Shown: positions 17,167-43,397, counted from the first letter of the stretch. The stretch: DNA of 64,000 nt from Candidatus Pacebacteria bacterium CG2_30_36_39 (GCA_001873435.1 MNZB01000004.1:239538-303537), one strand, 5' to 3'. Notes: generated from the letters alone by a model not told the origin. A program made the numbers and translations.

Positions 17167-17778
17167 ATGACACCAATTAGCACTCACTACTTCTCTCTTT
17201 CAAAGAGAACATTTGATTTTTCTCTAGCTATTTTCCTTGCTATCTTCTTATCTCCATTACTATTATTAATTGCTATTACTATTTTAATAAGTTCTGGTAT
17301 GCCAATCATTTTTACTCAGAAAAGAACTGGAAAAGATGGTAAAACCTTTACCATTTACAAATTTAGAACAATGAAAAAAAATGCTTCACTACTCAAGCAT
17401 AAATATCTAGAATTCAATGAAGCACCTTCTCCAATGTTTAAAATTCACAATGACCCAAGATTTGTTGGCATTGGAAAATTATTATCTCAAAGCGGTTTTG
17501 ATGAACTCCCTCAATTAGTTAACATCATTAAAGGTGAAATGAGCTTTGTTGGACCAAGACCATTGCCTGTTCAAGAAGCCGCCTCCCTTAATCAAAACTG
17601 GAAATCTTTTAGAGAACAAGTAAAACCAGGTGTTTTTTCAGAATGGACTCTTTCAAGCAATAGACATTCAACTCTAAAAAAATGGCAAGAACTAGAAGAA
17701 AAAACTCTATCGTATAGTAATTTAAAAAATGATTTAGAAGTCATGATTAAAGTCATGCTCAAACAACACAATCCCTAA
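17167..17778 (+). CDS. Initiating polyprenyl-phosphate hexose-1-phosphate transferase (bacterial sugar transferase, PglC/WbaP C-terminal type).
   Basis: One TM helix followed by 'PIIFTQKRTGKDGKTFTIYKFRTM...FDELPQLVNIIKGEMSFVGPRPL'. Confidence 0.85.
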   Translation: MTPISTHYFSLSKRTFDFSLAIFLAIFLSPLLLLIAITILISSGMPIIFTQKRTGKDGKTFTIYKFRTMKKNASLLKHKYLEFNEAPSPMFKIHNDPRFVGIGKLLSQSGFDELPQLVNIIKGEMSFVGPRPLPVQEAASLNQNWKSFREQVKPGVFSEWTLSSNRHSTLKKWQELEEKTLSYSNLKNDLEVMIKVMLKQHNP

Positions 17779-17830
17779 ATAAATTTAATCCTAAAACTTA
17801 GGATTAGCAGATGATGCTATTATTAAAATA

Positions 17831-20422
17831 GTGTCAAATATCCTTAAGTTTTTAGCTGGTTCAGCATTATTAATAATTTATTTATTATTAATCTTCTTAT
17901 TAGGTGAATCATTTCTGCAATATGTTCTTTTTGGGATGGGGGCGATCATTTGCCTTTATTTATCATTTGCTCTGGGAAATTGGTCTTCATTAATTAAATA
18001 CCCCTTAATTCTGGCTGGCTGGATATTATTTGTTTTGAGCTTGGCAATAAGCACTATTTCTACTGTGAATCTACCGCTAACTTTGAGTTATTTAGCATTT
18101 TATGGATTAAGCTATTTAACATTTATTACGATTTTGGTTTTACCTAAAAAAATAAAAAGTATTTGGGTAATTTTCACAACATTACTAGCAATTTTTATAG
18201 TTACTCTAATTAGTATCTTTTTTCAGTTATTTCCAGAAATGGCCAAATCATTACCAACAATGAACTTGATTTATTCAACTTTTGGCCATAACCATTTAGC
18301 AGCCATACTATTACTAATTATTCCCATGAGCTGGTGGTTTGCCATCAATAAAAAACACGAGCTAAGTGAAGTTTTTCCAAATATTTTTTTTCAAATTGTT
18401 CCCTTTTTTTTCTCAATAGTTTTGCTTTTTAGCTTTGGAAGAATAGCTATTTTGTTGGGTTTATTTGAGTTTTTAATTATTAAATTTTTATTAAATAAAC
18501 AAAAAGTATCTCCAACAAAAATTATTAAAAATGAACTACGCCTATTACAAATCTTATTTTTCTCAATCTTAATTATTAAAATCATCTTCTCAGTAGTTGA
18601 AATATTTAATCCTGGCTATATATGTCCTATTCAAGAAAAAGAAAAGCAATTATGTAAATCTATTTCAAATGAAAGAAGACCGCTCTACTGGGATCAAGCC
18701 TGGAAAGTAATCAAGGAATACCCGCCAATTGGTTCTGGACCAGGTACTTTTAGTGTTTCTGGAGCTAAATACAGCCAAGCCCCTCTATATAGAACATCTT
18801 TTGCTCATAACGCTTTCCTAGAAAACTACAGCACTTTGGGAATTATCGGAGGTAGCATCTTCATATTTTTAATGTTTAACATGTTATTTAAAGTAAGTCG
18901 TGCAAAAGAAATAAAAATAAATTCAAAAGAAGAATTGATTAATGGCAGTAATAGTTGGCAATTTTTCAGTTTAATTTCTTTATGTGCAATTTATGTTGAT
19001 GTTCTATTTGATTTTGATTGGAATTTTTCAGGAATCTTCATTTTAACGCTCATCTTAATTGCAACCATGCTTCGAGAAACTACTATAAATAAAGATCTAA
19101 ATTTTCTTAACAAAAGAAAGAGTGAAAAAATAGCTAAAGCAACTAAAAACATATTTGTTTTTATTAGTTTTTGTTTAATCACCCTATCTGGAACATATTT
19201 GGTTGTTGAATTTAAAATCAAACAACAAAAAACCAATGAAGCATTTGAGTTTTTCCCCTACTTCCACTGGCATCGTAAAATTTTTGAAACAGAACTATCT
19301 TCAGAAAACTACCCCAAACTCTTAAGTATTTATAAAAATTATCCAGAACACTACATATTTTTAATCAGCAAAGAAATTGATCCAAACAAAACAGCTCTCC
19401 TAAAAAAAAGACTGGGAGAACTGAGTCCTTGGGACAAAATTAAGGAAAATAACATTGAATACTATTTAAATGAAAATCAATATGACTTGGCTCAACAAGA
19501 ACTAGAAACAATTCATGAACTTTATCAAAAAAGCTTAAAAACAAGCGATGACTGGATTTTTAGCTATAGCGATATAAAAAGACTATCTCAACAGACCCTT
19601 AGATTTGCAGACAAAATATGGCTTCAAAACCCCTTATTAGCCGCTGATTTTTACACTAAAGCTCAAAAAATAGATTCATGGACTTGGCAAGAAAATAGCT
19701 TGGGTATTTTAAATGATAAATTTGACCAATATTTTCAACAAAGATTAGAATTTATGAGAAATTTTCCAAATGAAAAATATGATTATTTAGGCACTAATCG
19801 TAACACTTATGCCAAAAAATATTTATTGGCTTTAAATGAATTTTTAAAATCACAAGAAAACCCTCAAAATATTCATAATGATCTAAACAATATTTTAAAT
19901 ATGGCTAACTGGCTTTCTGTTTATGCTTGGGCTGACCTAAATGAAATTTACCAATTAAAAATAACCCAAACCTTACAAACAAACAAAATAAATGAAGTTA
20001 GTAGTTTAATTTCAGAATGGAAAAAAACCTCAGAAACAATCCAAAAATACAACAAAGATCTTTCGTGGGATTATAAACTAAAAATTAACTTAGTTAAAAA
20101 ACTGCAAAAAAAAGCTACTGAATTATTAAACAATAATAAAGCTGAAAATCTTACAGATGAAATAAGAAGCCAAGTCATGGATTTGGTTTCTTTAATGAAC
20201 CAAGTTTTACCAGAAAATTATTGGGTCATAGTACAGCCAGGAAATCTATATACCTATTTTGGCCAAATTGAGACAGCAAAAAAGGCTTTTCAATATTGTT
20301 TAGACAACTATTATGATCCAGGAAAACATGTAGATTGTGAGAATGGATTATTAAATTTAAATCAAGAAATACCAAATAAGAACCGCTATTTTGAAGTATC
20401 TAAAACCATCCTCAGCCAATAA
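17831..20422 (+). CDS. Wzy_C-family membrane protein (O-antigen ligase / O-oligosaccharyltransferase-like) with a ~450-aa C-terminal alpha-helical soluble domain.
   Basis: About 10 N-terminal TM helices. The motif '...RTSFAHNAFLENYSTLGIIGG' is the Wzy_C signature. The long K/N/E-rich C-terminus is probably TPR-like. Confidence 0.7.
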   Translation: MSNILKFLAGSALLIIYLLLIFLLGESFLQYVLFGMGAIICLYLSFALGNWSSLIKYPLILAGWILFVLSLAISTISTVNLPLTLSYLAFYGLSYLTFITILVLPKKIKSIWVIFTTLLAIFIVTLISIFFQLFPEMAKSLPTMNLIYSTFGHNHLAAILLLIIPMSWWFAINKKHELSEVFPNIFFQIVPFFFSIVLLFSFGRIAILLGLFEFLIIKFLLNKQKVSPTKIIKNELRLLQILFFSILIIKIIFSVVEIFNPGYICPIQEKEKQLCKSISNERRPLYWDQAWKVIKEYPPIGSGPGTFSVSGAKYSQAPLYRTSFAHNAFLENYSTLGIIGGSIFIFLMFNMLFKVSRAKEIKINSKEELINGSNSWQFFSLISLCAIYVDVLFDFDWNFSGIFILTLILIATMLRETTINKDLNFLNKRKSEKIAKATKNIFVFISFCLITLSGTYLVVEFKIKQQKTNEAFEFFPYFHWHRKIFETELSSENYPKLLSIYKNYPEHYIFLISKEIDPNKTALLKKRLGELSPWDKIKENNIEYYLNENQYDLAQQELETIHELYQKSLKTSDDWIFSYSDIKRLSQQTLRFADKIWLQNPLLAADFYTKAQKIDSWTWQENSLGILNDKFDQYFQQRLEFMRNFPNEKYDYLGTNRNTYAKKYLLALNEFLKSQENPQNIHNDLNNILNMANWLSVYAWADLNEIYQLKITQTLQTNKINEVSSLISEWKKTSETIQKYNKDLSWDYKLKINLVKKLQKKATELLNNNKAENLTDEIRSQVMDLVSLMNQVLPENYWVIVQPGNLYTYFGQIETAKKAFQYCLDNYYDPGKHVDCENGLLNLNQEIPNKNRYFEVSKTILSQ

Positions 20423-20486: not shown

Positions 20487-21464
20487 ATGAATACTAAGAA
20501 ACGAGCAAGGGTTTTAGTTGCAGGCGGTGGTGGCTTTATTGGTGGTCACTTAATTAAATATCTTAAAAAACAAGGTTATGAAAAAATCAGAGCTGTAGAC
20601 ATCAAACCACTGTCTGAGTGGCAACAGCTAGATTCTAAAGTTGAAAACATTTCCCTAGATCTTAAAGATAAAAACAACTGTATCGAAGCAGTTAAAGGAA
20701 TTGATGAAGTTTATAACCTAGCAGCTGATATGGGTGGCATTGGTTTTATCGAAAATAATAAGGCCAGTTGTATGCTGAGCGTTTTAATAAACACTCACTT
20801 ATTATTAGCAGCCAAAAATAACAAAGTTAAACGTTTTTTCTTTGCTTCATCAGCTTGTGTTTATGCTGCTGACAAACAAACAGAAACTCAAAATAAGGGC
20901 TTAAAAGAAAGCGATGCTTATCCAGCCATGGCTGAAGATGGTTACGGTTGGGAAAAGTTATTCAGTGAAAGAATGTGTCGCCACTTTGCAGAAGATTTCG
21001 GCTTAAAAACAAGAGTAGCTAGATTTCATAATGTTTATGGCCCATTCGGTGATTACAACACCGGCCGTGAAAAAGCTCCTGCTGCTTTAACTAGAAAAAT
21101 CATTGCTGCTGAAAAAACAAAGAAAAAAGAAATTGAAATTTGGGGAGATGGTGAGCAAACTAGAAGCTTTATGTATATTGATGACTGTGTAAAAGGCATC
21201 GACCTAATTATGCACAGTAATATTAAGGAGCCAGTCAACTTGGGTAGTGAAGAAATGGTTTCCATTAATCAATTGGTAGAGATATTAGAAAAAATTGCCA
21301 AAATAACTGTCAAAAGAAAGTATTTGCTTAACGCACCAAAAGGAGTTAGAGGTAGGAGTAGTGATAATACTCTGCTTAGAAAATATCTGAGTTGGGAACC
21401 ATCTATTTCTCTCAAAAGAGGTATGAGCAAACTATATCAGTGGATCAAACAAGTAGAAAAGTAA
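20487..21464 (+). CDS. GDP-mannose 3,5-epimerase (GME; NAD-dependent epimerase/dehydratase family).
   Basis: Near-identical blocks to plant and bacterial GME: 'AGGGGFIGGHL', 'YNLAADMGGIGFIENN', 'KRFFFASSACVYAADKQTETQNKGLKESDAYPA...GYGWEKL', 'RFHNVYGPFGDYNTGREKAPAA', 'EIWGDGEQTRSF.YIDDCV', 'EPVNLGSEEMVSIN', 'KGVRGRSSDN'. Confidence 0.8.
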   Translation: MNTKKRARVLVAGGGGFIGGHLIKYLKKQGYEKIRAVDIKPLSEWQQLDSKVENISLDLKDKNNCIEAVKGIDEVYNLAADMGGIGFIENNKASCMLSVLINTHLLLAAKNNKVKRFFFASSACVYAADKQTETQNKGLKESDAYPAMAEDGYGWEKLFSERMCRHFAEDFGLKTRVARFHNVYGPFGDYNTGREKAPAALTRKIIAAEKTKKKEIEIWGDGEQTRSFMYIDDCVKGIDLIMHSNIKEPVNLGSEEMVSINQLVEILEKIAKITVKRKYLLNAPKGVRGRSSDNTLLRKYLSWEPSISLKRGMSKLYQWIKQVEK

Positions 21465-21807: not shown

Positions 21808-23538
21808 ATGAAAACACTAGGTATTTCAGCTTTTTACCATGATTCAGCAGTTTGTTTAATAATTGATGGAAAAATCATTGCGGCGGCTGCAGAAGAACGT
21901 TTTACTAGAATAAAACATGATAATAATTTTCCCCATCGAGCCATTAAATACTGCTTGGAAGAAGCAAACATATCTATTAATGATTTAGATGCTATTGCTT
22001 TCTACGAAAAGCCAATCTGGAAATTTGAAAGACTGCTCAGTCAGCATCTCGAGTACTTTCCCCTTAGCATTAAGGTCTTTTTAGAAAACACCGGTTCTTG
22101 GCTGAATCAAAAACTAAATGTAGAAAACATTGTAAAAAAAGAACTCAAATACAATGGCAAAATATTTTTCAGTCCTCATCACCTTTCGCATGCTGCCAGT
22201 GCCTATTATCTTTCAGATTTTGAAGATTCAGTAATTGTTACGGTTGATGGAGTTGGAGAATGGGCCACTACTACTGTTGGTAGAGCAACTAAAAACAAAA
22301 TTAAAATAGATAAAGAAATCAGATTTCCTCACTCTCTTGGTTTGCTTTATAGCACCTTAACTGGTTATTTAGGTTTCAAAGTTAATGATGCTGAATATAA
22401 AGTCATGGGCCTTGCTGCTTATGGTGACTACAAACCATTTTTAAAGAAATTCGACCAATTAATCAAAATGCATAAAGACGGAAGTTATTCCTTAAATATG
22501 GAATATTTTGATTATGGTTGGGCAGAACATATGCCATCAGCAAAAATGGCTAAATTATTTGGTTATCCTATTAGAAAACCAGAATCAAAAATAGAACGAC
22601 ATCACGAAAACATTGCTGCTGCCTTGCAATACAAAACAGAACAAGTAGTTTTTAATTTACTTAAAAAAGCTCACCAAGAATACAAATGCGATAATCTTTG
22701 CATGGCTGGCGGTGTAGCTTTAAACTCTGTCTTAAATGGCAAAATATTGACAAATACTCCATTTAAAAAAATCTATATTCCCCCGGCTCCCAGCGATGCT
22801 GGTGGAGCCATGGGAGCTGCTTTATATCTAGATCAAAACCCAGAATTAATTGGTTTAAAGAAAAACACCAAAACAACCCATTTGGCCTTAGCTAAAAACT
22901 TCACTCCATACTTGGGTCCAGCTTATAGCCAAGATAGAATTCTAAAGGCTATTAAAGATTCCAAGCTAAAATATAAGTTATATAAAAGTGAAAAAGATTT
23001 ATTAGACTTTATTAGTGATTTAATCATTGATAAAAAAGTAATTGGCTGGTATCAAGGCAGGATGGAATGGGGGCCAAGAGCTTTGGGTAGTCGTAGTATT
23101 CTTGCTGCTGCCACCAGTAAAGACATGAAAGATATTTTGAATTTAAAAGTTAAAAAAAGAGAATTATTTAGACCTTTTGCCCCAGTTATTTTGGAAAAAT
23201 ATGCCCACGAATTCTTTGAAGCAGATAAGCCATTGCCTCCACTAGCCAAATACATGTTGCTTGTATATCAATTTACCAAAAAGGGAGCCAAAGACATTCC
23301 TTCTGTGGTTCATGTCAACGGTAGTGGAAGATTACAAAGCATCAATTGCAAAGAAAATCCTCTTTATTATGATCTTATTGATACTTATAGAAAAAAGACT
23401 GGAGTACCAGTTATCATCAATACTTCTTTTAATGTTCGCGGAGAACCAATTATCGATTCTCCAGAAAGCGCTATTAACTGCTTTTTAACAACAGAAATAG
23501 ATTGTTTAGTGATGGATCGCTATATAGTATTAAAGTAG
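21808..23538 (+). CDS. Carbamoyltransferase (NodU/CmcH family).
   Basis: 'MKTLGISAFYHDSAVCLI.DGKIIAAAAEERFTRIKHD..FP' N-terminal Kae1-like ASKHA fold plus a C-terminal YrdC-like domain, 576 aa. Confidence 0.85.
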   Translation: MKTLGISAFYHDSAVCLIIDGKIIAAAAEERFTRIKHDNNFPHRAIKYCLEEANISINDLDAIAFYEKPIWKFERLLSQHLEYFPLSIKVFLENTGSWLNQKLNVENIVKKELKYNGKIFFSPHHLSHAASAYYLSDFEDSVIVTVDGVGEWATTTVGRATKNKIKIDKEIRFPHSLGLLYSTLTGYLGFKVNDAEYKVMGLAAYGDYKPFLKKFDQLIKMHKDGSYSLNMEYFDYGWAEHMPSAKMAKLFGYPIRKPESKIERHHENIAAALQYKTEQVVFNLLKKAHQEYKCDNLCMAGGVALNSVLNGKILTNTPFKKIYIPPAPSDAGGAMGAALYLDQNPELIGLKKNTKTTHLALAKNFTPYLGPAYSQDRILKAIKDSKLKYKLYKSEKDLLDFISDLIIDKKVIGWYQGRMEWGPRALGSRSILAAATSKDMKDILNLKVKKRELFRPFAPVILEKYAHEFFEADKPLPPLAKYMLLVYQFTKKGAKDIPSVVHVNGSGRLQSINCKENPLYYDLIDTYRKKTGVPVIINTSFNVRGEPIIDSPESAINCFLTTEIDCLVMDRYIVLK

Positions 23539-23550: not shown

Positions 23551-23694
23551 ATGTTTAAAGAATTAATTAAATATTTATGGAAAAATAAATCTTGGTGGAT
23601 TATCCCACCAGTAATTATTTTAATTATCTTTGGCGCATTAGTGGTTTTTTCTCAAACATCTCCACTTAGTCCATTTATCTACGTCTTATTTTAA
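23551..23694 (+). CDS. 47-aa membrane protein of the small family that typically follows carbamoyltransferases (DUF5989-like).
   Basis: ATG at 23551, 13 nt after the carbamoyltransferase stop. The sequence is MFKELIKYLWKNKSWWIIPPVIILIIFGALVVFSQTSPLSPFIYVLF. It is too short for the ORF track. Confidence 0.55.
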   Translation: MFKELIKYLWKNKSWWIIPPVIILIIFGALVVFSQTSPLSPFIYVLF

Positions 23695-24917
23695 AGTTTT
23701 TCAATAGCTTTAATCACCATTGGAGTTAGTTTTTTGGCAACTATTTCATAACCTTTATCTGACGTATGAATGTGATCAATATAAATATCTTCTGAAAATT
23801 CATTATAAAAATCTGTGCCATCAATAATTGTTTTATCCAAAAATAATTTGGATTTAAGCAAATAGTCATAAGCAGAAGAAAAATACTTCTCTGCCCCAGG
23901 AAAAACCCCCACAAATCTTTCCTTAATTCTTATTTCTTCAGTTGAAAAAGATTTATTACCCCAAAAAATAGTTGGTTGAAAAACAAATAATACAGGAGTT
24001 TTTGTTTTACTCGCTATTGCGTTAATATAGTCAACACTTTCTTCATATTTTTTTGCTGAATCAATTGCAACATTCCCTTGTTCTAAAATATTCTCAGCTT
24101 TATTAAGATTTGATTTTTGCAAATGATATCTAAAAAAACCAAGTAATTCACTCTTATTTAAACGATTTTTAACTTCTTCTTCTATTAATGACCAAGCAGC
24201 ACCCAATTTTTTCTTGGTCAAAGCATTCTCATTAATACCAGGCAAATTTGACCCTACTTTATAAATAAAACCAGCATAAAGATCATTAAAACCACCATAG
24301 TGAATAACTAAATCTGGTTGGTAGGCACTAATTTCTTTCCACATCAATAATTCTTGAGTAGAAACATAGCCTGGCTGGCCTAGATTTAGCACTTCTATTT
24401 TATTGGCTACTAAATTTATTTTTTTCTCTGCCAACTTGTTATTTAGCTCTTTCTCTAGATAGCCAATAATAGTTTTATCATCAGCCGTTGCTCCCTGACC
24501 CCAAACTGAAGAACCGCCCAATATGATGATTCTAAAAGTTCCAGCTTGTTTTTCTCCCCAGTCATTACCCCTATAGCCTAATGAGTTGGTAGAAACGACT
24601 CCGTTGTCTTGATTTGGATCAGATGCCCACAACAAAAATGGCTTATATGAATATTTAATATTCTCATACTGTTTAGTAACAAAATCCTGTTCTTCCAAAC
24701 TAGAAAAAGTAGAAAAATATAAACGATCAACATTCTTCACTCGATGAATAAATCTTAGTGTTAACTCACCAGCAATTAAAAATAAAAAAACAATCAAACA
24801 AGAAATTAAAACTAGAAACAATTTATTTATTTTAAAAGCAAACTTATTATCAGCTTCTAATACTATTTTTTCTCTAGAATTAACAGATTCTTTTTTCTCA
24901 GACCTAACACTAAACAT
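23691..24917 (-). CDS. Membrane-anchored SGNH/GDSL-family hydrolase (possible glycan O-acetyl esterase/transferase).
   Basis: N-terminal TM helix. Block I 'IIILGGSSVWGQGA' contains the catalytic Ser. Block III is 'VIHYGGFNDL'. The late 'DHIHTSDKGYE' supplies the Asp/His. Confidence 0.55.
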   Translation of the reverse strand: MFSVRSEKKESVNSREKIVLEADNKFAFKINKLFLVLISCLIVFLFLIAGELTLRFIHRVKNVDRLYFSTFSSLEEQDFVTKQYENIKYSYKPFLLWASDPNQDNGVVSTNSLGYRGNDWGEKQAGTFRIIILGGSSVWGQGATADDKTIIGYLEKELNNKLAEKKINLVANKIEVLNLGQPGYVSTQELLMWKEISAYQPDLVIHYGGFNDLYAGFIYKVGSNLPGINENALTKKKLGAAWSLIEEEVKNRLNKSELLGFFRYHLQKSNLNKAENILEQGNVAIDSAKKYEESVDYINAIASKTKTPVLFVFQPTIFWGNKSFSTEEIRIKERFVGVFPGAEKYFSSAYDYLLKSKLFLDKTIIDGTDFYNEFSEDIYIDHIHTSDKGYEIVAKKLTPMVIKAIEKL

Positions 24918-34883: not shown

Positions 34884-36156
34884 AATGAGCCCATTCTCTG
34901 CCCAGAACCTACTCAAAAAAATTAATCTATACAATCTAGCTTTGCTATTAATTGGTGTTTTTACTATCTTAAAAATAGCTAATATTACTCAAAGCACTCA
35001 TTATCATAGCGATGAATACTTTTCAATTTTATTAGTTAATAGCTACAAACCAATCGACTATTTCAAATTTAATACAGACGTGGGAAACCCGCCGTTTTAT
35101 TATTTAATGCTTGATAACTATTTATCTTTTTTTCCCACAAAAAATGAATTTGTTAGTAGATCATTATCAATAATATTTTTAATTGTTAGTTTGTTTTTTG
35201 TTATAAAAATTGCCGACAATATTTTTAAATCAAAATTAAATAAATTAGCCCTATTCACTCTTTTTTCTACCTCAGGAACAGTTATTAATTACTACACTCT
35301 AGCAAGGCCATACCCTCTGTATCTAACAATATTCATTATCATTATTTTTCTATTTACCAAAAAAAGAACAAATAAAATAAATTCAATGTTTATCATTATG
35401 TTAATTTTGGGCATGTTTACTCATTATGTTTTTTTTGTTATTTCAATTTGCTTTTTAATTTATTTTATCCTACAAAAAAATCTTAAAATGACCCTAGCCA
35501 TTGGGGCAAGTTTTTTAATTAGCTTTGGATTAAATGCAAAATATGTATATTTGTCGTTATTTGATAAAAACAATCAATATGCTTTTGACCAGTTTCAAGT
35601 ACAAACAATGAGCTTATTAGAACCAATCCGCGCTGCTTGGTTTAGAGGTTTTGTTTCATACCAAATCATTGCTATTTTATTAATAATATTGTTTTTCTAT
35701 TTGCTAAAAAATATCAAACATTCAAATATTAACTCTATAAATTATTCAATAATCAACATAACTATTATTAGTTATTTGGCATTTTTTATTCCACCCTTAT
35801 CAAGAATTTTTCCATCACTTACATATAAATTATCTTTAATTTTTCTATTGCAAATAGTTCTAATAAATTTATTTGATTCATTGCCAAACTTTAAAAGTAA
35901 AAAAATAATTGTTGGTCTATATATTGTTTGGTTAATTTTTACCTCTCCTCTAAAAAGGTTTGATGTCTTTCAACCAGAGATAGACGATTTATCTATGAAA
36001 CTAGATGCCATGAAAGCAAGTCAAGAAGTTCCGTGGGTTATAACTCAAAAATGCTTTGTTAATATGGTTCCATATTTCAAATATTATTTACCCAAAAACC
36101 AATTTAAATGTTTGGATAACCAAACCACCTTAGTAACTCCAATCATTCAGCAATAA
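34867..36156 (+). CDS. Polytopic membrane protein, GT-C-fold (ArnT/PMT-like) glycosyltransferase candidate.
   Basis: 429 aa with about 10 TM helices. An early loop has 'HYHSDEYFS', a DE motif. Confidence 0.4.
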   Translation: MPKKYKMSPFSAQNLLKKINLYNLALLLIGVFTILKIANITQSTHYHSDEYFSILLVNSYKPIDYFKFNTDVGNPPFYYLMLDNYLSFFPTKNEFVSRSLSIIFLIVSLFFVIKIADNIFKSKLNKLALFTLFSTSGTVINYYTLARPYPLYLTIFIIIIFLFTKKRTNKINSMFIIMLILGMFTHYVFFVISICFLIYFILQKNLKMTLAIGASFLISFGLNAKYVYLSLFDKNNQYAFDQFQVQTMSLLEPIRAAWFRGFVSYQIIAILLIILFFYLLKNIKHSNINSINYSIINITIISYLAFFIPPLSRIFPSLTYKLSLIFLLQIVLINLFDSLPNFKSKKIIVGLYIVWLIFTSPLKRFDVFQPEIDDLSMKLDAMKASQEVPWVITQKCFVNMVPYFKYYLPKNQFKCLDNQTTLVTPIIQQ

Positions 36157-36250: not shown

Positions 36251-37372
36251 ATGAAGTTTAATCAAAATATAACTGAAATCACTTTTGACGACGTTCTGCT
36301 TTTGCCTGGAAAATCAGATTTTTTGGTCGATAATGAAAAAAAAGTTGTTAATATCACTGGCAGAGTAACCAAAGATTTATTCCTCGAACTACCAATAATT
36401 TCAGCCCCAATGCCAGGAATCACCACCGCAGCAATGGCAATAGCCCTTGGAAAAGCTGGTGGCATGAGCGTTATCCACCCATTTCAATCAATTAAGAGCC
36501 AAGCTGAGCAAATCAGAATAGTTAAAGAAGCAAATGTAAAAGTTGCTGGCAGTATCTCTTTTAATAAAAACACTACTCTAAAAGATGTTGAAATATTATT
36601 AAAAGCAGGAGCTGATTTAATTTCAATTGAAACTGGCCATGCTCATAACCAACAAACCATAGAGTTTATTAGTAAAATTAAAAATACTTTCGAAAAAATT
36701 AGATTAAGTGCTTCTTTAGTAGTAACTGGAGAAGCCACTGAAGCCCTAATTAAAGCAGGCGCTGACAATATTAGAGTTGGAATTGGTGGTGGCTCACACT
36801 GTACCACCAGACTTGTTACTGGAGTTGGAAGACCACAACTTAGTGCCATTGAAGAATGTTATAAAGTAGCTAAAAAATATGACATCCCAATTATTTCTGA
36901 TACTGGCATTAAGTATTCCGGAGATTTACCAAAAGCTTTTGCTTTTGGAGCCGAAACAGTCATGATTGGTGGACTACTGGCTGGAACAGATGAGTGTCCT
37001 GGAGAAATAGTTGAAAAAGAAGGTAAAAAATATAAATATTCTTGGGGCATGTGCACTGATACTGCTTACAAACACAAAACTCCTTTTGAAAAACTGAAAC
37101 CAGAATACATTTTGCAATTAATTAAAAAAACCATCAAGAAAATTATTGGTAGAGCAGATTCTGATTCATTTAGAGAAAAAGACTTTGAAGAAGGAGTTGA
37201 AGCATTAGTTCCTTATCGTGGACCAGTTACCTCTATACTCAATCAACTAAGGGGCGGTCTCATTAGATCTATGTGGTATTTGGGTACAAAAAATATTAAG
37301 GAAATTGCCAAAAAAACCAGAGTGGTTATGGTTTCAAATAGCACTCCCCTAGAAAATATTCCTCGAATTTAA
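36251..37372 (+). CDS. IMP dehydrogenase/GMP reductase family enzyme without a CBS pair.
   Basis: '[15 protein letters not shown]'. Catalytic loop '[11 protein letters not shown]'. 373 aa. Confidence 0.8.
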
Positions 37373-37377
37373 AACAA

Positions 37378-38034
37378 ATGCTTAAATCAATTCTTAGAAA
37401 AACTAAGAAAATAATCGAAAAAAAACTAATCAAATATATAGTTTGGGATTTTGATGATACTTTGTATGTAAATCTCAAGCTTGGAACCAAACTAAAGAAA
37501 TGTTATCTAGATTATCTTAATGAAAAGAGTAAAGAAAATATTTCTTTTAGAGAATTTAATCTATTAACAAAAAATGGTTTGAGCTGGAGTGGTTTAGTCG
37601 CCAAAAAATTAAAAAAATCTGAAATTAAAATTATCAATGAAGTTGAAAAAAGATTTAATAAAAGCCAATATCTCAAAAAAAACTCATTACTGGTTAAACA
37701 ATTAGAAAAACTAACCAAATATCGTCACGTCATCTTGACTAATTCTCCAGCTTTTGAAGTAGAACAATGTCTTAAAAAAATTGGTTTTAAAAAGAAAAAT
37801 AATCTTGATTTTTTTCCTTTTGAAAAAATTATTGATTGTAATTTAAGTAAAAAATTAAAACCTGATTTAACTCCCTTTAAAAAAGTTACTGACTATACAA
37901 AAATTCATCCAATAAAACATTTAATGGTTGGCAATTCCTATCACAGTGATTTATTACCTGCAAAAAAAGCAGGTTTTCAAGCCATACTAATAGAAGAAAT
38001 TCCAGAATATTTAAAAATAAAACTCAAACAATGA
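37378..38034 (+). CDS. HAD-superfamily phosphatase (nucleotidase candidate).
   Basis: HAD motif I is 'VWDFDDTLY'. The gene sits 6 nt after the IMPDH-family gene. Confidence 0.6.
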   Translation: MLKSILRKTKKIIEKKLIKYIVWDFDDTLYVNLKLGTKLKKCYLDYLNEKSKENISFREFNLLTKNGLSWSGLVAKKLKKSEIKIINEVEKRFNKSQYLKKNSLLVKQLEKLTKYRHVILTNSPAFEVEQCLKKIGFKKKNNLDFFPFEKIIDCNLSKKLKPDLTPFKKVTDYTKIHPIKHLMVGNSYHSDLLPAKKAGFQAILIEEIPEYLKIKLKQ

Positions 38035-38972
38035 AAAAAAAACCTGAAATAATCATTGATACCGACGCTGGTGCAGATGATTTACTAGCAATAACACTTC
38101 TTTTTTCAGCCAATAGTTATTTAATTAAAAAAATTATTACTAGCTATGGCAGTTTTTCTCTAAAAGAATCTACTTCTAGAATTAATAAACTACTAAGCCT
38201 TATTGGAGCAGAAGATATTGCTGTCATAGAGACTGGTGCACAAAAACCCCTAAAAAGAAGCTTTGAACCCTATCACTTAATTCATGGTGATTTGTGGATT
38301 TCTGAAGAGCAAAAACATACAAAATTAAATATAAAAAAACTTGTTGATAATTTATTGCCAAAAACAGATTATTTTTGTCTAGGGCCTTTAACAAATCTAA
38401 GCAAGTTATTGGATGAAAAAGATTTTTTAAAAAAAATTAATAACATCTATATTATGGGTGGGGCAATTTCTTACCCTGGTAATGCTACACCATTAGCTGA
38501 AGCTAACTTTTTCTGGGATCCAGATGCTGTAGAAAAAGTTTTTAAATTGGCTAGTGAAAAAATTAGATTAATTCCCTTGAACATCACTGAACAAATTCAA
38601 CTTAATAATAAGGATATTAAATTCTTCAAAGAACAAAAAATTATTTCTGGATTTTTTAAACCATATTTGCACTATTACTTAAAAATTAAAAAATGGTTTT
38701 TAGATCCAAAAGATTATTTACAAAAAAAATACTCTGGAGCCTCAATTCATGACGTAGTAGCTGTTATTAGTTTGTTTGATAATAGAATTATCAACTTTAA
38801 GCCTATTTTGCTTGCTACTGATTTAATCAAAAAAGAACCAGGATTTATTTATCCAATTTTAAGACAAGAACAGCAATCAAATAAAAAAAATAGTTATAAA
38901 ATAATGACTGCAGTAAATATTAATCAAAAAGAGTTTTGGGAAACCTTTAATAAGGTATTGGTCTCTAGGTAA
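38031..38972 (+). CDS. Ribonucleoside hydrolase (IUNH family).
   Basis: N-terminal 'IIIDTDAGADDLLAI' is the DXDXXXDD Ca-binding motif. It overlaps the HAD gene by 4 nt. Confidence 0.85.
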   Translation: MKKKPEIIIDTDAGADDLLAITLLFSANSYLIKKIITSYGSFSLKESTSRINKLLSLIGAEDIAVIETGAQKPLKRSFEPYHLIHGDLWISEEQKHTKLNIKKLVDNLLPKTDYFCLGPLTNLSKLLDEKDFLKKINNIYIMGGAISYPGNATPLAEANFFWDPDAVEKVFKLASEKIRLIPLNITEQIQLNNKDIKFFKEQKIISGFFKPYLHYYLKIKKWFLDPKDYLQKKYSGASIHDVVAVISLFDNRIINFKPILLATDLIKKEPGFIYPILRQEQQSNKKNSYKIMTAVNINQKEFWETFNKVLVSR

Positions 38973-40203
38973 CAAAGTTTTTAATAAACAAATTTACTTC
39001 AGCTATTAAAGTATTTTTTCCATCAAAATCATGAAGTAATTTATCAACTGTCCTATATCTAGATTTGATTTCTCTCTTATGTTGTTCTTCTGTTTTAGCC
39101 AAAAACTTTAAAATTGAATTAACTAGCCTTTGTTGATTGGCTAAATAATATTTTAAACCTTCATATAAATAACCAACGTCTTCTGCATCTTTCTTGGGAT
39201 GATAAAAAGAAGCAGATAAACAACTATCACACTCAAAACCTTCTTTAAACATTTCATTAACATTTATAGTATGAGAAGTAGTTTGTTCTGGTAAAAGAAA
39301 TATTCTCTTTTTAAAATAAACTGATTCATAAATTCCGTTTTGACCTGGTTGCATAATTAAATAATCGCAATTAGCAATTAAGGACATATGCTCTTTAAAC
39401 GGCAGGGTTGTTATTATTTCTAAATTGTTAAATTTTTCTTGAATGTGACTTAGACTGGGCGTAACTTTTAAAACAATTCTGTAGTTATTTTTTGAATTTA
39501 CCTTATTCAAAACATTGCCAATTAAATTTGCGTAATCAACACTAAACTCATATCCAGTATTTGGATTTAACATTCCTCCCAACTGCACATAGATTAATTT
39601 TTTAGAATCTTTTTGATAAGTTTTGGGAAGTTTTTTTTCCGGAACCAAAGCACCAAATAATTCAATGCTGTGATTATATTTACTTAAAAAATCTACTCTT
39701 TTTTCTACCAATGTTCCAAATCGTTGAATTAGAGATTTGCTTGAGAATAAATGACCAAGAATAAATGGATAGTGTGTGTTTATATCAACTAATTCTGCTA
39801 ATTTTTTACCAAACAAAGCTGGAGTTTCTTTTTTAAGAGCAATAATTTTTCTATACAAATCAATAACTTTTTTTTCATCATATTGCCAAAACCACAAACA
39901 ATTATCGATATATAAACTAGGAATTCCTAGTTGCCATGATTTAATAACCAAAATTGGATCAAAACAAGAAATAACTGCTTCCACAGATCTCTCTGCCAAA
40001 GCTTTTTCCATATTTTCAGCTAAATCTACCCTGTAACCTTGTTGTTTAAAAAAGTTTTTCTGTTTTTCAGTTCCTAAAAATGAAAAATTCTGTTGTTTTT
40101 TGTTATCAACCAAAGATTGAGCCAAAATTGAAGTGGGACCCAAGCCAAAATCATGAGCACTTATTAAAATCTTGTGCTTTGGTTTGAAGAAACGAAAATT
40201 CAT
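38965..40203 (-). CDS. GT-B-fold glycosyltransferase (GT1/MGT/MurG-like).
   Basis: 'ISAHDFGLGPTS', 'VQLGGM', 'ANCDYLIMQPGQNGIYESVYFKKRIFLLP'. Confidence 0.5.
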   Translation of the reverse strand: MNFRFFKPKHKILISAHDFGLGPTSILAQSLVDNKKQQNFSFLGTEKQKNFFKQQGYRVDLAENMEKALAERSVEAVISCFDPILVIKSWQLGIPSLYIDNCLWFWQYDEKKVIDLYRKIIALKKETPALFGKKLAELVDINTHYPFILGHLFSSKSLIQRFGTLVEKRVDFLSKYNHSIELFGALVPEKKLPKTYQKDSKKLIYVQLGGMLNPNTGYEFSVDYANLIGNVLNKVNSKNNYRIVLKVTPSLSHIQEKFNNLEIITTLPFKEHMSLIANCDYLIMQPGQNGIYESVYFKKRIFLLPEQTTSHTINVNEMFKEGFECDSCLSASFYHPKKDAEDVGYLYEGLKYYLANQQRLVNSILKFLAKTEEQHKREIKSRYRTVDKLLHDFDGKNTLIAEVNLFIKNFVT

Positions 40204-41813
40204 TTGTGTTTTTTATTAAATCTTTGCAAATCTTTTATAAAATAATAAAAATAACTAGTAATTTTTTCTGGTTTGGTTAAGATTTGTCTTAAGTAATATT
40301 TGGGGAAAACAAAAAGATCATGAGCTCTCTGTTTTAATGCCAAAGCAGCTCTAAGTTTTTGATTTTGACGATCAGCCTCAATCAAGCTCTCTGTCCAACC
40401 TGGAATACTTTCCCATTTTTGCTGAACATGATTTGAAAGTTTGGCAAATTTTGCCCAAATCTTTTCCGTATCTCTATCTGAATAATCATTATAGAAAAAT
40501 ATTTTTGTCATATCTCTATCACCAGATGATAAATCAAACATTAAAAAGTCATCCCAAACCAGCTTGTCAGTATCAAGTATTCCCATGTCTACAGCCTCTG
40601 TCCAAAGTTTAGTCCCAGGATATGGAGTAGTAACAGAATAACCCAGTGATAAAGCATTTTTTTGGTTTGCAAACCACTTTGCAAGTTGATATGTTTCTTC
40701 AGTTTCTTCTTTGGTTTCAGTTGGTGCAAAAAGCATAAAACTACCAAAAACAAAGATATTATATTTACCAAATAGTTTTGTTGAGTTTTTTACTTGCTCA
40801 TTTGTTAATTGACCATCTTTATATCGCTTTAAAAGTCTTGCGCTACCAAACTCAATACCAATAAAAACTGAAATTGCTCCAAATTCTTTAAGAATCTGCA
40901 CAAACTCCTCATCAATTAGATTGGCTCGAATAAAAAGATGAGAGAAAAACACTTTACCCAGCAGATTTCTTTCTTTTAATTCTCTAATCAAGTCTCTTGC
41001 TCTTGGCTTTGATATGGCAAAGGTATCATCCATGATTTGGAAGGATTGAACACCATAATCCTTATATAAGGCCTCGATTTCATCTACCACTTTTTTAGCA
41101 CTAAAGTATCTCACCCCAGTCCAAACAACTCGGTGGGCACAAAATGCACAATTATAAGGGCAACCTCTGGCTGAATAAATTCTTACAGTTTTAAATACTT
41201 GAGGTTTACCATCGACTAAAAATACTTGATTTTGAAAGATCTTTTCAGCGTGCAGCAAACTCCAATCCAATGCGTCTGCTTTTTTTGTATCAATTGCTAA
41301 ACGAATCTGAGTTTTAACTATTTTTCCCAATTTATTAATAAAAGTTATACCTGGAATTTTCTCTAATTTGGCATCACTAACAGATGTTTTATTTTTCTTA
41401 AAAACACTCACCAACTCTGCCAATGTAGCTTCTCCTTCTCCCAAAACACCAATATCAAATGGCTGTTTTAGTTTTTCTGGCAAAGAAGAGATGTGATAGC
41501 CACCTATTATTGTTGTAACTGGATATTTTTCTTTAATTTTGTTTGCAATATCTGCTGCAAGTGAGTAAAAAGCTGTAATTACAGAAAAACCAATTAGGTT
41601 TGGTTCGAATTTCTCCACAATTTTAACTGGATCCTCAAAATCTAAATCAATAATTCTAATTTGTTTTCTAGATAAAATCTTATTTTTTACCAAATAATCA
41701 GCCAAATACAATAAATTAAGAGGAGCCTCATCTAAATAACTACGATCAACTACATTAATTAAACAAAGTCTGAATTCTTTACTATTAATTTTATTAACTG
41801 GAAATGATTTCAT
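40200..41813 (-). CDS. Cobalamin-binding radical SAM enzyme (class B).
   Basis: N-terminal Rossmann B12-binding region. The 'RGCPYNCAFCAH' CxxxCxxC cluster is present. 537 aa. Confidence 0.8.
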   Translation of the reverse strand: MKSFPVNKINSKEFRLCLINVVDRSYLDEAPLNLLYLADYLVKNKILSRKQIRIIDLDFEDPVKIVEKFEPNLIGFSVITAFYSLAADIANKIKEKYPVTTIIGGYHISSLPEKLKQPFDIGVLGEGEATLAELVSVFKKNKTSVSDAKLEKIPGITFINKLGKIVKTQIRLAIDTKKADALDWSLLHAEKIFQNQVFLVDGKPQVFKTVRIYSARGCPYNCAFCAHRVVWTGVRYFSAKKVVDEIEALYKDYGVQSFQIMDDTFAISKPRARDLIRELKERNLLGKVFFSHLFIRANLIDEEFVQILKEFGAISVFIGIEFGSARLLKRYKDGQLTNEQVKNSTKLFGKYNIFVFGSFMLFAPTETKEETEETYQLAKWFANQKNALSLGYSVTTPYPGTKLWTEAVDMGILDTDKLVWDDFLMFDLSSGDRDMTKIFFYNDYSDRDTEKIWAKFAKLSNHVQQKWESIPGWTESLIEADRQNQKLRAALALKQRAHDLFVFPKYYLRQILTKPEKITSYFYYFIKDLQRFNKKHK

Positions 41814-41835
41814 ATTATTGATTAATCTTATTTAA

Positions 41836-42561
41836 CTAACTAATATTTTTACTTTTTTTATAATTTTTAATCACCTCTTTGCCACCATCACCAAGGATTT
41901 CACCATTCTCCAACCAAATAATTCTTTCACAGGATTTGGAAATAAAATCAATCAGGTGACTTACTATTACTACCACTTTTCCTTTTTTTAAAAAAGAATC
42001 AACTCTTTTAGCGGTTTTAATCTTAAACTCTTCGTCCCCTACAGCAATCATTTCGTCTAAAAGAAAAATATCTGGATCACTATTAATTGCCACAGCAAAA
42101 CCTAATCTTAATTTCATGCCTTTGGAATAAGTAAAAAGAGGTTCATCTATAAACCTACCGATATCAGCAAAACCAATGATCTCATCCATTTTCGCGTTAA
42201 TCTCTTTCTTATTCATTCCCAAAACCATGCCATTAATCATAATATTTTCTCTACCAGATAAATCTGGGTGAAAACCAGCTTCTAGATCAATTACAGAAAC
42301 AACTTTACCAATTACTTTTAGTTCGCCGGATGTTGGTTGTGAAATATCAGAGATAATCTTAAGAATGGTTGTTTTTCCAGATCCATTTGGACCAACTATT
42401 CCCACTTTTTGTCCTTTAAAAATATCTAAATTAATTCTATTTAAAGCAACTAGTTTTTCTGGCCTAGATCTACCGATTATCTGCTCTATAAGAGTAGGAC
42501 GGTGTCCTAGTAGAACATATTCTTTAGTAATGTTTCTTAGTGAGATAACTGGTTTATTCAT
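41836..42561 (-). CDS. ABC transporter ATP-binding protein, polysaccharide/teichoic-acid exporter type (Wzt/TagH-like).
   Basis: Walker A 'GIVGPNGSGKTT', signature 'YSKGMKLRL', Walker B 'IFLLDE'. Confidence 0.85.
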   Translation of the reverse strand: MNKPVISLRNITKEYVLLGHRPTLIEQIIGRSRPEKLVALNRINLDIFKGQKVGIVGPNGSGKTTILKIISDISQPTSGELKVIGKVVSVIDLEAGFHPDLSGRENIMINGMVLGMNKKEINAKMDEIIGFADIGRFIDEPLFTYSKGMKLRLGFAVAINSDPDIFLLDEMIAVGDEEFKIKTAKRVDSFLKKGKVVVIVSHLIDFISKSCERIIWLENGEILGDGGKEVIKNYKKSKNIS

Positions 42562-42563
42562 AA

Positions 42564-43397
42564 TTAAACATAATCACTAAAATTTTTACTATCTTTATAA
42601 AAGATATAGAAACCAACTATAAAAAATAAGCTCGCCGACAATAAACTAAACATCCAGATTGGTTCTGGAGCTGAATTTGAAATAAAAAATATATTTCTCA
42701 TCATAACCACAACCAAACTCAGTGGATTTAAAAATAATACCCATCTAATAAATTCTGGGATTACGTTTTGAGAATAAATAATTGGAGTTAAATAAAATCC
42801 TAATGGCAATGAGGCTTGCATAATAAAACTAACATCTCTAAATCTGATATTAAGAGATGAAACTAATAGCCCTAAGCCACTGGTAAAAATAACTAAACAA
42901 ATTATGGCTAATAATAGAAGAAGGAGATTAATAAAAATAACATGTTGCCAAACGGCTACGAATAAATACAACAATACAAATGAAATTAATAAGTGAAACA
43001 AATTAGCAGCAACTATTGATAAAACTAATATTTCTCTAGGAAAATTTGCTTTCTGTAAAAGAAATCTTTGATGAACAAAAACTGGAGTGATCTGGTTTAA
43101 GCTTGAAGAAAAGAAATTCCAAATTAATAAACCAACAAATAAAAATAAGAAGTAGTTTTCTGTTTTTACTGGCATGAAAAACTGAAAAACGGCTCCAATA
43201 ACAAACATTTGTAGTATTGGATTAATAATCATCCAGGCAAAACCCAAGCCAGCATTCTTATATCTAGCCTTTATTTCTTTCTCTGTCATCGTCCATAGAA
43301 AATCCAACCAATATTGTTGTTTATCATTTAGTTTAAATAGTTTTGATTCACTAAATACCATATCGAGACTTAATTTTAACAGAATATTGGACAACAA
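42564..43397 (-). CDS. ABC-2-type permease (Wzm/TagG-like).
   Basis: 277 aa with 6 TM helices. It is directly upstream of, and stop-start coupled to, the ATPase. Confidence 0.7.
   Translation of the reverse strand: MLSNILLKLSLDMVFSESKLFKLNDKQQYWLDFLWTMTEKEIKARYKNAGLGFAWMIINPILQMFVIGAVFQFFMPVKTENYFLFLFVGLLIWNFFSSSLNQITPVFVHQRFLLQKANFPREILVLSIVAANLFHLLISFVLLYLFVAVWQHVIFINLLLLLLAIICLVIFTSGLGLLVSSLNIRFRDVSFIMQASLPLGFYLTPIIYSQNVIPEFIRWVLFLNPLSLVVVMMRNIFFISNSAPEPIWMFSLLSASLFFIVGFYIFYKDSKNFSDYV

Follow-up and report, generated by a model that had tools for sequence, protein, structure and literature searches.

What does a contiguous 26-kb island of polysaccharide genes in the ultra-small groundwater bacterium Candidatus Pacebacteria bacterium CG2_30_36_39 produce, and why are enzymes of purine nucleotide metabolism embedded in it? 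The island occupies positions 17167-43397 of the 64,000-nucleotide stretch of DNA analysed here (GCA_001873435.1, MNZB01000004.1:239538-303537), called the window below; all positions are those of the window, with the strand in brackets. An earlier annotation made from the sequence alone, referred to as the original prediction, had described an ABC-transporter-dependent glycan island and had left out three consecutive genes at 36251-38972, encoding an inosine monophosphate dehydrogenase (IMPDH)/GMP reductase (GMPR)-like enzyme, a HAD phosphatase and a nucleoside hydrolase. The first two of these overlooked genes belong to the most conserved core of the locus. To our knowledge, such a set of purine enzymes has no established role in sugar-polymer synthesis. 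We consider it fairly probable that the island is a native, lineage-conserved surface-glycan or O-glycosylation locus of the candidate phyla radiation (CPR), dependent on an ABC transporter and equipped with a module that makes a purine- or amine-derived substituent. The locus type itself, an ABC-dependent glycan combined with a Wzy_C ligase, is already known; what makes it of interest is its wide conservation in CPR bacteria and the unexplained purine/decarboxylase/methyltransferase module.

Gene identities were assigned with Pfam profiles (reported at E <= 0.01), NCBIfam profiles and sequence matches to PDB entries. The call of open reading frames (ORFs) resolved the island into 23 back-to-back ORFs, tightly packed on both strands with almost no intergenic space, from the start of a phosphoglycosyl transferase (PGT) gene at 17167 to the start of the minus-strand Wzm gene at 43397. 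The contiguous island of about 26 kb was recovered at exactly the coordinates first proposed, and about 19 of the earlier gene calls held up in profile or structure tests.

A four-gene module in the core of a conserved glycan locus

The CBS-less IMPDH/GMPR-like protein (36251-37372, +; PF00478, 332.8 bits) seemed misplaced, and for this reason it was chosen as the probe. Related proteins, CBS-less and about 370 amino acids (aa) long, come from Pacebacteria, Shapirobacteria and other Patescibacteria. Twelve distinct genomic contexts of such relatives, at 45-75% identity, were examined, and all twelve were the same kind of glycan locus; a scan of genome contigs with the single IMPDH-like protein returned 4 loci. 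The genes are syntenic in relatives, not scattered, as expected if the island that had been predicted is a real unit.

Gene families were counted after clustering nine distinct loci all-against-all. Wzm, Wzt, a methyltransferase of the Methyltransf_24 family and a pyridoxal phosphate (PLP)-dependent decarboxylase were present in 9/9 loci, the HAD phosphatase, a 500-aa Wzy_C protein and its partner of about 290 aa in 8/9, one family 2 glycosyltransferase (GT2 b) in 7/9, and a carbamoyltransferase in 4/9. Four of the conserved genes form what we call the module: the IMPDH/GMPR-like enzyme, the nucleotidase-like HAD-IA phosphatase (37378-38034, +; HAD_2 40.4 bits, DFDDT motif), the PLP decarboxylase, which belongs to fold III (32793-34019, +), and the Methyltransf_24 enzyme, a class-I S-adenosylmethionine (SAM) methyltransferase (32113-32790, -; PF13578 55.1 bits). 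The module is better conserved than most of the glycosyltransferases of the locus. Together with Wzm/Wzt, Wzy_C and GT2 it makes up a core cluster which recurs in Pacebacteria, Shapirobacteria and other Patescibacteria. The GDP-mannose 3,5-epimerase (GME), GT26, carbamoyltransferase, GT-B, B12-binding radical-SAM enzyme, 429-aa membrane protein and Methyltransf_11 enzyme described below are lineage-specific additions. The GT-B and B12-radical-SAM genes form a block of their own with Wzt/Wzm, and in one related locus (L019) this block occurs without the IMPDH-like gene.

The slot of the decarboxylase is not always filled by the same protein. Six of the nine clustered loci have a fold-III enzyme and three a group-II enzyme resembling histidine/tyrosine decarboxylases; over the 12 distinct loci, the group-II enzyme (PF00282) replaces the fold-III one in 5. 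Since two unrelated folds fill this slot, a case of non-orthologous replacement, it appears that the decarboxylation step itself is selected.

As a control, metagenomes were scanned with the seeds GGSHCTTR and GVGRPQLSA, taken from the family alignment. This gave 80 loci, and neighbours were counted on those of at least 10 kb, comparing the clade (at least 40% identity) with the next-nearest IMPDH-like group (33-37% identity). A HAD neighbour was found in 23/25 clade loci and 1/28 outgroup loci, a Methyltransf_24 neighbour in 24/25 against 1/28, a decarboxylase in 23/25 against 1/28, Wzm in 18/25 against 0/28, and Wzy_C in 14/25 against 0/28 (Fisher p 1e-6 to 1e-13). The lone positive of the outgroup, at about 40% identity, probably belongs to the clade as a borderline case. 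Because outgroup loci from the same scan essentially lack the glycan and module neighbours, the association is specific to the clade and not an artefact of the search. The HAD and decarboxylase genes directly adjoin the IMPDH-like gene (median centre-to-centre distances 0.9 and 1.2 kb), Wzm and Wzy_C mostly occur no more than 10 kb from it, and the B12-radical-SAM enzyme was present in 7/25 clade loci. The outgroup (L060-L102) consists of CBS-less IMPDH-like proteins of about 330 aa, mostly on brine and marine metagenome contigs, which share the GSHCTTR or GVGRPQLSA motif. We also noted the CPR-type cluster on contigs labelled Candidatus Woesearchaeota, Candidatus Methanoperedens, 'uncultured Pseudomonadales' and Candidatus Pacearchaeota (L011, L012, L013 and L016), the gene order of L012 being nearly the same as that of a Shapirobacteria locus (L008). 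These archaeal and Pseudomonadales labels probably reflect mis-binning or mislabelling.

Predicted chemistry of the module

In the IMPDH-like family, the catalytic Cys loop (GSHCTTR, with an invariant His before the Cys) is invariant in 57 members, and the enzyme keeps the ribose- and phosphate-binding motifs. The flap, which cannot be aligned with IMPDH structures, is not conserved among family members; at the Arg-Tyr position the window protein reads S-F. IMPDH needs the flap Arg-Tyr dyad to activate water and hydrolyse the covalent E-XMP* intermediate. The dyad is missing here, which rules out a canonical IMPDH; possible identities are a GMP reductase, or an enzyme whose thioimidate is resolved by another nucleophile. 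GMP reductase, which deaminates GMP with NADPH, has the IMPDH fold and the catalytic Cys/Thr but lacks the hydrolysis dyad. The sequence features of the window enzyme are compatible with it, and GMP reductase is the name given to its relatives by NCBI; its scores with the GMPR equivalog models are below their cut-offs (215 vs 397 and 199 vs 492 bits). The decarboxylase, already recognised in the original prediction, is of the Orn/DAP type (Orn_Arg_deC_N, 101 bits), and comes closest to the N-citrylornithine decarboxylase FslC (FslC model 196 bits; PDB 7kh2 169 bits, vs 90 bits for diaminopimelate (DAP) decarboxylase).

Further genes variably join the module: a nucleoside hydrolase, a purine phosphoribosyltransferase (PRT) with a phosphoribosyl pyrophosphate (PRPP) synthetase, B12 or other radical-SAM enzymes, or a Dph2-like enzyme. 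The window carries an inosine-uridine-type nucleoside hydrolase (38031-38972, +; PF01156 164.5 bits, Ca-site motif DTDAGADD), found in 5/12 distinct loci (the window, L005/L013, L006, L010 and L022). A purine-type PRT, a PRPP synthetase and an AP_endonuc_2 barrel occur together in L017 and L021. L021 carries a fusion of the HAD with a methyltransferase, L015 encodes a P-loop kinase along with a partial QueC-like domain, and L018, the sole locus without a HAD within 10 kb, has a DUF4406 protein. Next to the nucleoside hydrolase, L006 (13565-14821) and L022 (13522-14775) encode a Dph2-like radical enzyme (TIGR03682, about 235 bits vs a cut-off of 202.8). In archaea and eukaryotes, enzymes of the Dph2 family normally transfer a 3-amino-3-carboxypropyl radical for the synthesis of diphthamide. 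Many loci also have B12 or SPASM radical-SAM enzymes. From their predicted functions, these accessory genes all point to purine or ribose chemistry. PRPP-dependent ribofuranosylation by a PRT of the gPRT type and a HAD phosphatase, which is known from Klebsiella, was considered and not adopted: the PRTs of L017 and L021 are of the classical purine type, and are absent from most loci. A separate observation concerns homologues of RGP, the UDP-arabinopyranose mutase family, in L015 (3038-4027, 176 bits), L021 (6247-7224) and L022 (6924-7898), which suggests arabinofuranose in some related glycans.

Export and putative ligation machinery

An ABC-transporter-dependent glycan locus, as originally predicted, is supported by the gene content. 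The island encodes a priming enzyme, cytoplasmic glycosyltransferases (GT26, GT4, two GT2 and a GT-B fold), and both Wzm and Wzt, while profiles at E <= 0.01 gave no match to a Wzx/MOP flippase (Polysacc_synt) or to a Wzz/PCP co-polymerase among the 23 ORFs, two of which have no family. MurJ is encoded outside the island, at 2875-4563. The priming enzyme is a small monotopic PGT (17167-17778, +; Bac_transf 162.6 bits) with one N-terminal hydrophobic segment, and aligns with the EPS/WbaP/WcaJ models over their catalytic C-terminal portion. For the ABC-2 permease Wzm (42564-43397, -; ABC2_membrane, PF01061, 76.3 bits), the best NCBIfam name is Wzm/RfbD, under the equivalog cut-off. The Wzt/TagH-type ATPase (41836-42561, -; ABC_tran, PF00005, 83.7 bits) has 241 aa and no C-terminal carbohydrate-binding extension; it scores 189 bits with the Wzt/RfbE model and 168-171 bits with TagH models, all under their cut-offs.

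The two proteins first described as Wzy_C and Wzy-like both proved to be Wzy_C-domain membrane proteins, above the Pfam cut-off of 31.7 bits. One, of 863 aa (17831-20422, +; 46.7 bits, residues 192-345), is a candidate ligase or O-oligosaccharyltransferase, with about 11 transmembrane (TM) segments in its N-terminal 450 aa followed by a soluble C-terminal region of about 400 aa, in which Pfam gave no TPR match at E <= 0.01. A C-terminal TPR-type domain is present in PglL and WsfB and is not universal among Wzy_C O-oligosaccharyltransferases. The other, of 500 aa (29710-31212, -; 48.9 bits, 11 TM segments), is the core protein, of ligase/polymerase type, and its gene is paired with that of a conserved 296-aa, TM-anchored, all-beta protein (28839-29729, -). 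Neither Wzy_C protein has a PDB sequence match. Pfam Wzy_C is the O-antigen-ligase/O-oligosaccharyltransferase domain; in ABC-type O-antigen pathways the Wzy_C protein is the ligase, and some Wzy polymerases are also matched by this profile.

The coexistence of Wzy-like and ABC machinery had been regarded as unusual. This view was not confirmed, because a PGT, Wzm/Wzt and a Wzy_C O-oligosaccharyltransferase make up the known layout of Gram-positive S-layer glycan clusters (PMC2943079). Outside lipopolysaccharide (LPS), the known acceptors of Wzy_C enzymes are proteins (PMC2943079). As for the wall-teichoic set, profiles detected no TagO-type initiator, TagB/TagF or LCP ligase in the window, only the TagA-like and TagGH-like members being present, and none of the three missing types appeared in the Pfam annotations of 15 context look-ups of related loci.

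Sugar-building and decorating enzymes

Profile searches with Pfam and NCBIfam confirmed the PGT, the carbamoyltransferase, GT26, GT4, both GT2, the B12-radical-SAM enzyme and Wzm/Wzt. The GME (20487-21464, +) aligned with solved GMEs at 308 bits (E 5e-91 to 8sg0/2c59), vs 105 bits for the next family of short-chain dehydrogenases/reductases, and Cys145, Tyr174, Lys178 and Lys217 (A. thaliana numbering), which we take from the work on 2c59 to be the catalytic residues, are all identical to 2c59 in the alignment. A generic epimerase is ruled out by this family-specific score and the four retained residues. The NodU/CmcH-type O-carbamoyltransferase (21808-23538, +) matched both Carbam_trans_N (292 bits) and Carbam_trans_C (222 bits). 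It is followed by two TM-anchored SGNH/GDSL-like proteins, each with an N-terminal TM segment (23691-24917, -, 28.6 bits; 24993-26120, +, 24.6 bits, GDSF motif). The call of two SGNH hydrolases stands above the Lipase_GDSL cut-off of 23.6 bits, but only marginally. A bidirectional, terminator-like hairpin was seen at 23592-23611, between the convergent carbamoyltransferase and SGNH genes.

Among the glycosyltransferases, the GT26 enzyme of the WecG/TagA/CpsF family (26126-26857, +) scored 146.5 bits with PF03808 and 115.5 bits with TIGR00696 (cut-off 69), and the TuaH-like GT4 (26863-28026, +) 47.8 bits with Glyco_trans_1_4 and 83 bits, below the cut-off, with the TuaH model. The GT2 enzymes are GT2 a (27973-28839, -; Glycos_transf_2 85.2 bits) and the core GT2 b (31196-32107, -; 62.6 bits). 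By NCBIfam, GT4 and GT2 resemble TuaH and TuaG of teichuronic acid synthesis. The earlier GT-B call (38965-40203, -) was supported by a fold search with the predicted structure, which indicated a GT1-like fold and placed natural-product GT1 enzymes nearest; this glycosyltransferase is rare, and the protein is also on record from a Candidatus Pacebacteria MAG. Identity as a CGA synthase was rejected, the match being of 21.7 bits only and the fold search supporting a GT1-like fold only. Seventy remote homologues of the GT-B enzyme gave only weak Pfam matches (GT28, GT1, epimerase-2), and two of them are fused to SLOG/LOG-like nucleotide-processing domains. Next to it lies the B12-binding radical-SAM enzyme (40200-41813, -; Radical_SAM 74.5 bits, B12-binding 54.4 bits).

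Of the two or three SAM methyltransferases predicted, two were found, the Methyltransf_24 enzyme of the module and a class-I Methyltransf_11/25 enzyme (34032-34883, +; 42.3 bits) common to the closest relatives only. No third was found; the 296-aa ORF at 28839-29729 is a TM-anchored all-beta protein. The protein formerly called GT-C-like (34867-36156, +) is a polytopic membrane protein of 429 aa for which 7 or more TM segments are predicted, the first followed by an HSDEY stretch; it had no Pfam, NCBIfam or PDB sequence match. Other gene callers place its start 18 nt later. Judged by its gene content, with a true GME, a carbamoyltransferase and methyltransferases, the locus is supported as encoding the capacity for an L-hexose (GDP-L-galactose/L-gulose), carbamoylation and methylation, as had been proposed.

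Candidate acceptor proteins

The original prediction had pointed to Ser/Thr-rich LPxTG proteins beside the island, and these were indeed found. The first (43470-44159, +) is a Pro/Thr/Ser-rich surface protein (PT repeat 45.6 bits; S+T+P fraction 0.35) ending with LPQTG and a hydrophobic tail, with a homologue at the same position in L005/L013. The second (45388-46374, +) is rich in Thr, Ser and Pro, ends with LPKTG and a hydrophobic tail, and has two paralogues in L013. Between them lies a Cys-rich secreted protein with a PT linker and without LPxTG (44296-45384, +), kept in L005/L013. It shares with the 43470-44159 protein an N-terminal TM segment followed by an INQDLRQQAD-G-Y-N motif. In L018, a sortase and a 2316-aa adhesin adjoin the cluster.

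The adjacent LPxTG proteins are plausible glycan acceptors, as far as their sequence allows a prediction. Because no LCP or TagB/F was found in any locus, and because, LPS aside, proteins are the only acceptors known for Wzy_C enzymes, O-glycosylation of these PT/Ser-rich proteins is the outcome we favour, with about an even chance of being correct. Attachment to peptidoglycan or a lipid is the main alternative to protein acceptors, with less than an even chance.

Proposed pathway

From the observed gene identities, synteny and statistical association, we infer an order of steps, an acceptor and a chemistry for the module. The small PGT would prime polyprenyl phosphate at the cytoplasmic face, and the chain would be built in the cytoplasm by GT26, GT4, GT2 and the GT1-like GT-B, with GDP-L-galactose/L-gulose among the nucleotide-sugar donors. 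It would receive carbamoyl and methyl groups, perhaps acyl groups too, and the finished lipid-linked glycan would be exported by Wzm/Wzt. A Wzy_C-type enzyme, paired with the TM-anchored beta-protein, would then move the glycan to its acceptor, most likely the neighbouring Ser/Thr/Pro-rich LPxTG proteins, as in S-layer O-glycosylation. The module would most likely convert a purine nucleotide into a dephosphorylated, modified nucleoside or base, or couple it to an amine derived from the decarboxylation, and the glycan would carry its product as a conserved substituent or as a cap.

The functional link between module and glycan is probable, whereas any specific chemistry for the module is doubtful at best. 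One such chemistry, which we put forward as a speculation and think rather unlikely, is that the glycan is capped or decorated with a purine residue, possibly an N2-alkyl/aminoalkyl or methylated xanthine or guanine derivative, through IMPDH-like thioimidate chemistry together with the decarboxylase, methyltransferase and radical-SAM enzymes. If true, a purine cap would be a class of glycan substituent new to bacterial envelopes, and a new type of reaction for the IMPDH/GMPR fold.

Much of bacterial diversity belongs to the CPR, whose members live attached to other cells and whose surface chemistry is essentially unexplored. The locus, which is conserved widely, is a candidate for the principal surface-glycan or protein O-glycosylation system of these bacteria, and the four-gene module is compact enough for direct expression and assay. 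Should the module contribute to the glycan, both the substituent and the enzyme activity would be new, the latter in a well-studied fold. Should it not, purine salvage would prove to be tied in an unusual way to the synthesis of the envelope, in organisms unable to make nucleotides.

Several points weigh against our proposal. We know of no surface glycan with a purine-derived substituent, and literature searches turned up neither such a glycan, nor a described CPR glycan locus, nor an IMPDH-like gene in polysaccharide clusters. The IMPDH-like gene might be the organism's only purine interconversion enzyme, and the four module enzymes could belong to two unrelated sub-pathways, one for the amine and methyl group, the other for the nucleotide and phosphatase. 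A Wzy_C domain alone does not separate a ligase from a polymerase, and the predicted structure of the GT-B enzyme is of moderate confidence (pLDDT 68.6). Concerning the acceptors, the LPxTG/PT neighbours adjoin the cluster only in the closest relatives (L005/L013), their tails end in LLLFL without basic residues, which is atypical for sortase signals, and no sortase or LCP gene was found in the window.

Alternative explanations

The leading rival for the role of the module is that its purine genes are salvage or recycling passengers, co-expressed with the locus for disposal of GDP and GMP or to provide GTP for GDP-mannose, and give no atoms to the glycan. CPR bacteria rely on salvage, and the succession GMPR, nucleotidase, nucleoside hydrolase is a textbook catabolic sequence, in line with the 'GMP reductase' name of family members; moreover the locus uses a GDP-sugar (GME), and the PRT and PRPP synthetase of L017/L021 are salvage enzymes. 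We nevertheless hold this explanation to be unlikely. The association survives rearrangement down to 45% identity in 12/12 contexts and is essentially absent from the 28 control loci, GME and other GDP-sugar genes lack conservation from locus to locus, and no guaA, ndk or guanylyltransferase gene lies beside the module. Furthermore, the IMPDH-like gene is always flanked by a decarboxylase and Methyltransf_24, neither of which has a role in salvage, and both the filling of the decarboxylase slot by two unrelated folds and the HAD-methyltransferase fusion of L021 count against salvage as well. Alternatively, the module, the GT-B and radical-SAM enzymes and the ABC-2 transporter could make and export a free nucleoside-type natural product beside the glycan genes. 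The constant partners of the module, which include the glycan enzymes Wzy_C, its partner protein and GT2, make this improbable, even though GMPR-like, PRT and HAD enzymes are hallmarks of toyocamycin/tubercidin clusters and drugs are also exported by ABC-2 exporters. The natural-product GT1 folds nearest to the GT-B enzyme and the SLOG/LOG-like fusions of its two remote homologues would fit such a product, but GT-B and B12-radical-SAM are outside the conserved core, occurring in L019 with Wzm/Wzt and without the IMPDH-like gene, and no deazapurine or other base-building genes were found in the window.

Other explanations bear on the polymer or on the origin of the island. The polymer may be a secondary cell-wall polymer, similar to wall teichoic acid, carried by peptidoglycan or a membrane lipid, with the LPxTG proteins as unrelated neighbours. 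The TagA-like GT26, the exporter with its TagH scores of 168-171 bits, the TuaH/TuaG-like GT4 and GT2, and the absence of PT/LPxTG neighbours from most related loci are compatible with it. Against it, neither the window nor the 15 context look-ups yielded a TagO-type, TagB/TagF-type or LCP enzyme, and the sole candidate ligases are Wzy_C proteins, whose known non-LPS acceptors are proteins (PMC2943079). We regard it as a serious possibility, though one with less than an even chance. That the locus houses two assembly pathways, a Wzy-dependent polymer and a separate ABC-exported one, as the original prediction implied, would account for the two Wzy_C-domain proteins, given that some Wzy polymerases match this profile, and for the several strand changes in the island. 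It fits poorly with a single PGT, with the lack of Wzx/MOP and Wzz/PCP matches in the island, and with the co-occurrence of Wzy_C and Wzm/Wzt in 8/9 loci, as expected for an exporter and a ligase, and we find it hardly likely. Finally, a recently acquired horizontal-transfer cassette had been suggested, to be checked by GC and codon usage. The GC content of island genes is indeed lower than that of the other window genes (0.303 vs 0.342, p = 3e-4), and the island sits between an rRNA/tRNA region and a tRNA gene. The GC content at third codon positions (GC3) is indistinguishable (0.221 vs 0.229, p = 0.57). Because GC3 is equal, the gap in GC is explained by amino-acid composition, through codon positions 1-2 of proteins rich in Lys, Asn, Ile and Phe, and not by codon usage. 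No integrase or transposase was present among the ORFs scanned by profiles, the 75% relative L013 shares both the cluster and its right-hand neighbours (PT proteins and MacA), and the core is spread over Patescibacteria lineages. Recent transfer was rejected on the equal GC3 and the synteny in relatives, and appears highly improbable to us.

Relation to known systems

Our reading, that of a native surface-glycan or O-glycosylation locus, finds its closest parallel in the S-layer glycan (slg) clusters of Geobacillus stearothermophilus NRS 2004/3a and Paenibacillus alvei (WsaP/WsfP, Wzm/Wzt, WsaB/WsfB). Common to both are a monoderm-type envelope and a set composed of a WbaP-family PGT, cytoplasmic glycosyltransferases, a methyltransferase, Wzm/Wzt and a Wzy_C transferase, with the target protein encoded close by (PMC2943079). 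The differences are that short LPxTG proteins rich in PT/Ser would take the place of an S-layer protein as acceptors, that two Wzy_C proteins are present, one with an obligate partner of about 290 aa, that rml genes are absent, and that the GME, carbamoyltransferase, B12-radical-SAM enzyme and purine/decarboxylase module have no counterpart in slg clusters. With the ABC-dependent O-antigens of E. coli O8/O9a and Klebsiella (WaaL), the locus would have in common complete cytoplasmic polymerisation, Wzm/Wzt export, ligation by the Wzy_C family and chain-terminating or capping modifications by dedicated enzymes. It departs from O8/O9a-type systems in that a CPR monoderm should have no lipid A-core to accept the glycan, in its 241-aa Wzt without C-terminal carbohydrate-binding domain, and in its initiator, a Bac_transf PGT and not WecA. 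The teichoic and teichuronic acid pathways (TagO-TagA-TagB/F-TagGH-LCP; TuaA-H) have similar parts in the TagA-like GT26, the TagGH-like exporter, the TuaH/TuaG-like GT4 and GT2, but TagO, TagB/F and LCP are absent here and equivalog scores are far below the cut-offs.

The module was compared, by description, with the tubercidin and toyocamycin pathways (TubD/ToyE, TubE/ToyH, ToyI). ToyI is the HAD phosphatase of the toyocamycin pathway, and a CBS-less enzyme of the GMPR/IMPDH family of about 370-385 aa together with a HAD phosphatase is common to these pathways and the module. Tubercidin biosynthesis uses the CBS-less GMPR homologue TubD and TubE, a purine PRT of 194 aa (PMC6112128); a purine PRT of about 190 aa is matched only in the related loci L017 and L021. 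In contrast to these clusters, no GTP cyclohydrolase, QueD or QueE is encoded in the window, a partial QueC-like domain is seen only in L015, the partners are a PLP decarboxylase and Methyltransf_24, and the context is a surface-glycan locus rather than a secondary-metabolite cluster. As to the GMEs of plants and thermophilic prokaryotes, the full-length alignment (308 bits) and the catalytic Cys/Tyr/Lys/Lys make the window enzyme a similar protein; compared to the plant enzyme it is shorter, at 325 aa, without the plant N- and C-terminal extensions, and would serve a surface glycan rather than ascorbate.

Flanking genes and other features of the window

On its left, the island is flanked by rpsA, a tRNA-Ala gene and a 23S-5S rRNA pair, and on its right by the three secreted proteins, a tRNA-Ile gene and a MacAB-like efflux system. 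The 23S and 5S genes (11241-14382, -), with tRNA-Ala(TGC) upstream (14584-14658, -), have no adjoining 16S gene, so the rRNA operon is apparently split. Beyond this region come a 211-aa ORF without assigned family and rpsA. The tRNA-Ile (46449-46526, +) has the anticodon TAT (UAU), a rare way of reading AUA. It is overlapped by the MacA-like ORF if the mechanically called TTG start (46489) is used, so the real start of this ORF is probably later; other gene callers place it about 190 nt past the preceding gene. The scan for promoters and terminators found fewer promoter-like sites than in shuffled sequence.

The remaining genes of the window are housekeeping genes, among them PilN/O, MurJ, LepA, Lgt, Pth and an ATP-dependent DNA ligase. 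Amid these lies a gene for a 778-aa homologue of VirD4/TraG/HerA-like coupling ATPases (52655-54991, -), followed by a 272-aa ORF of unusually high GC (0.41). The DNA ligase (61808-63595, -) is of the archaeal/eukaryotic type, with all three domains. A sequence identical to the window is present in groundwater metagenome contigs (ERZ909571/SRR1534154; JGI 3300008094).

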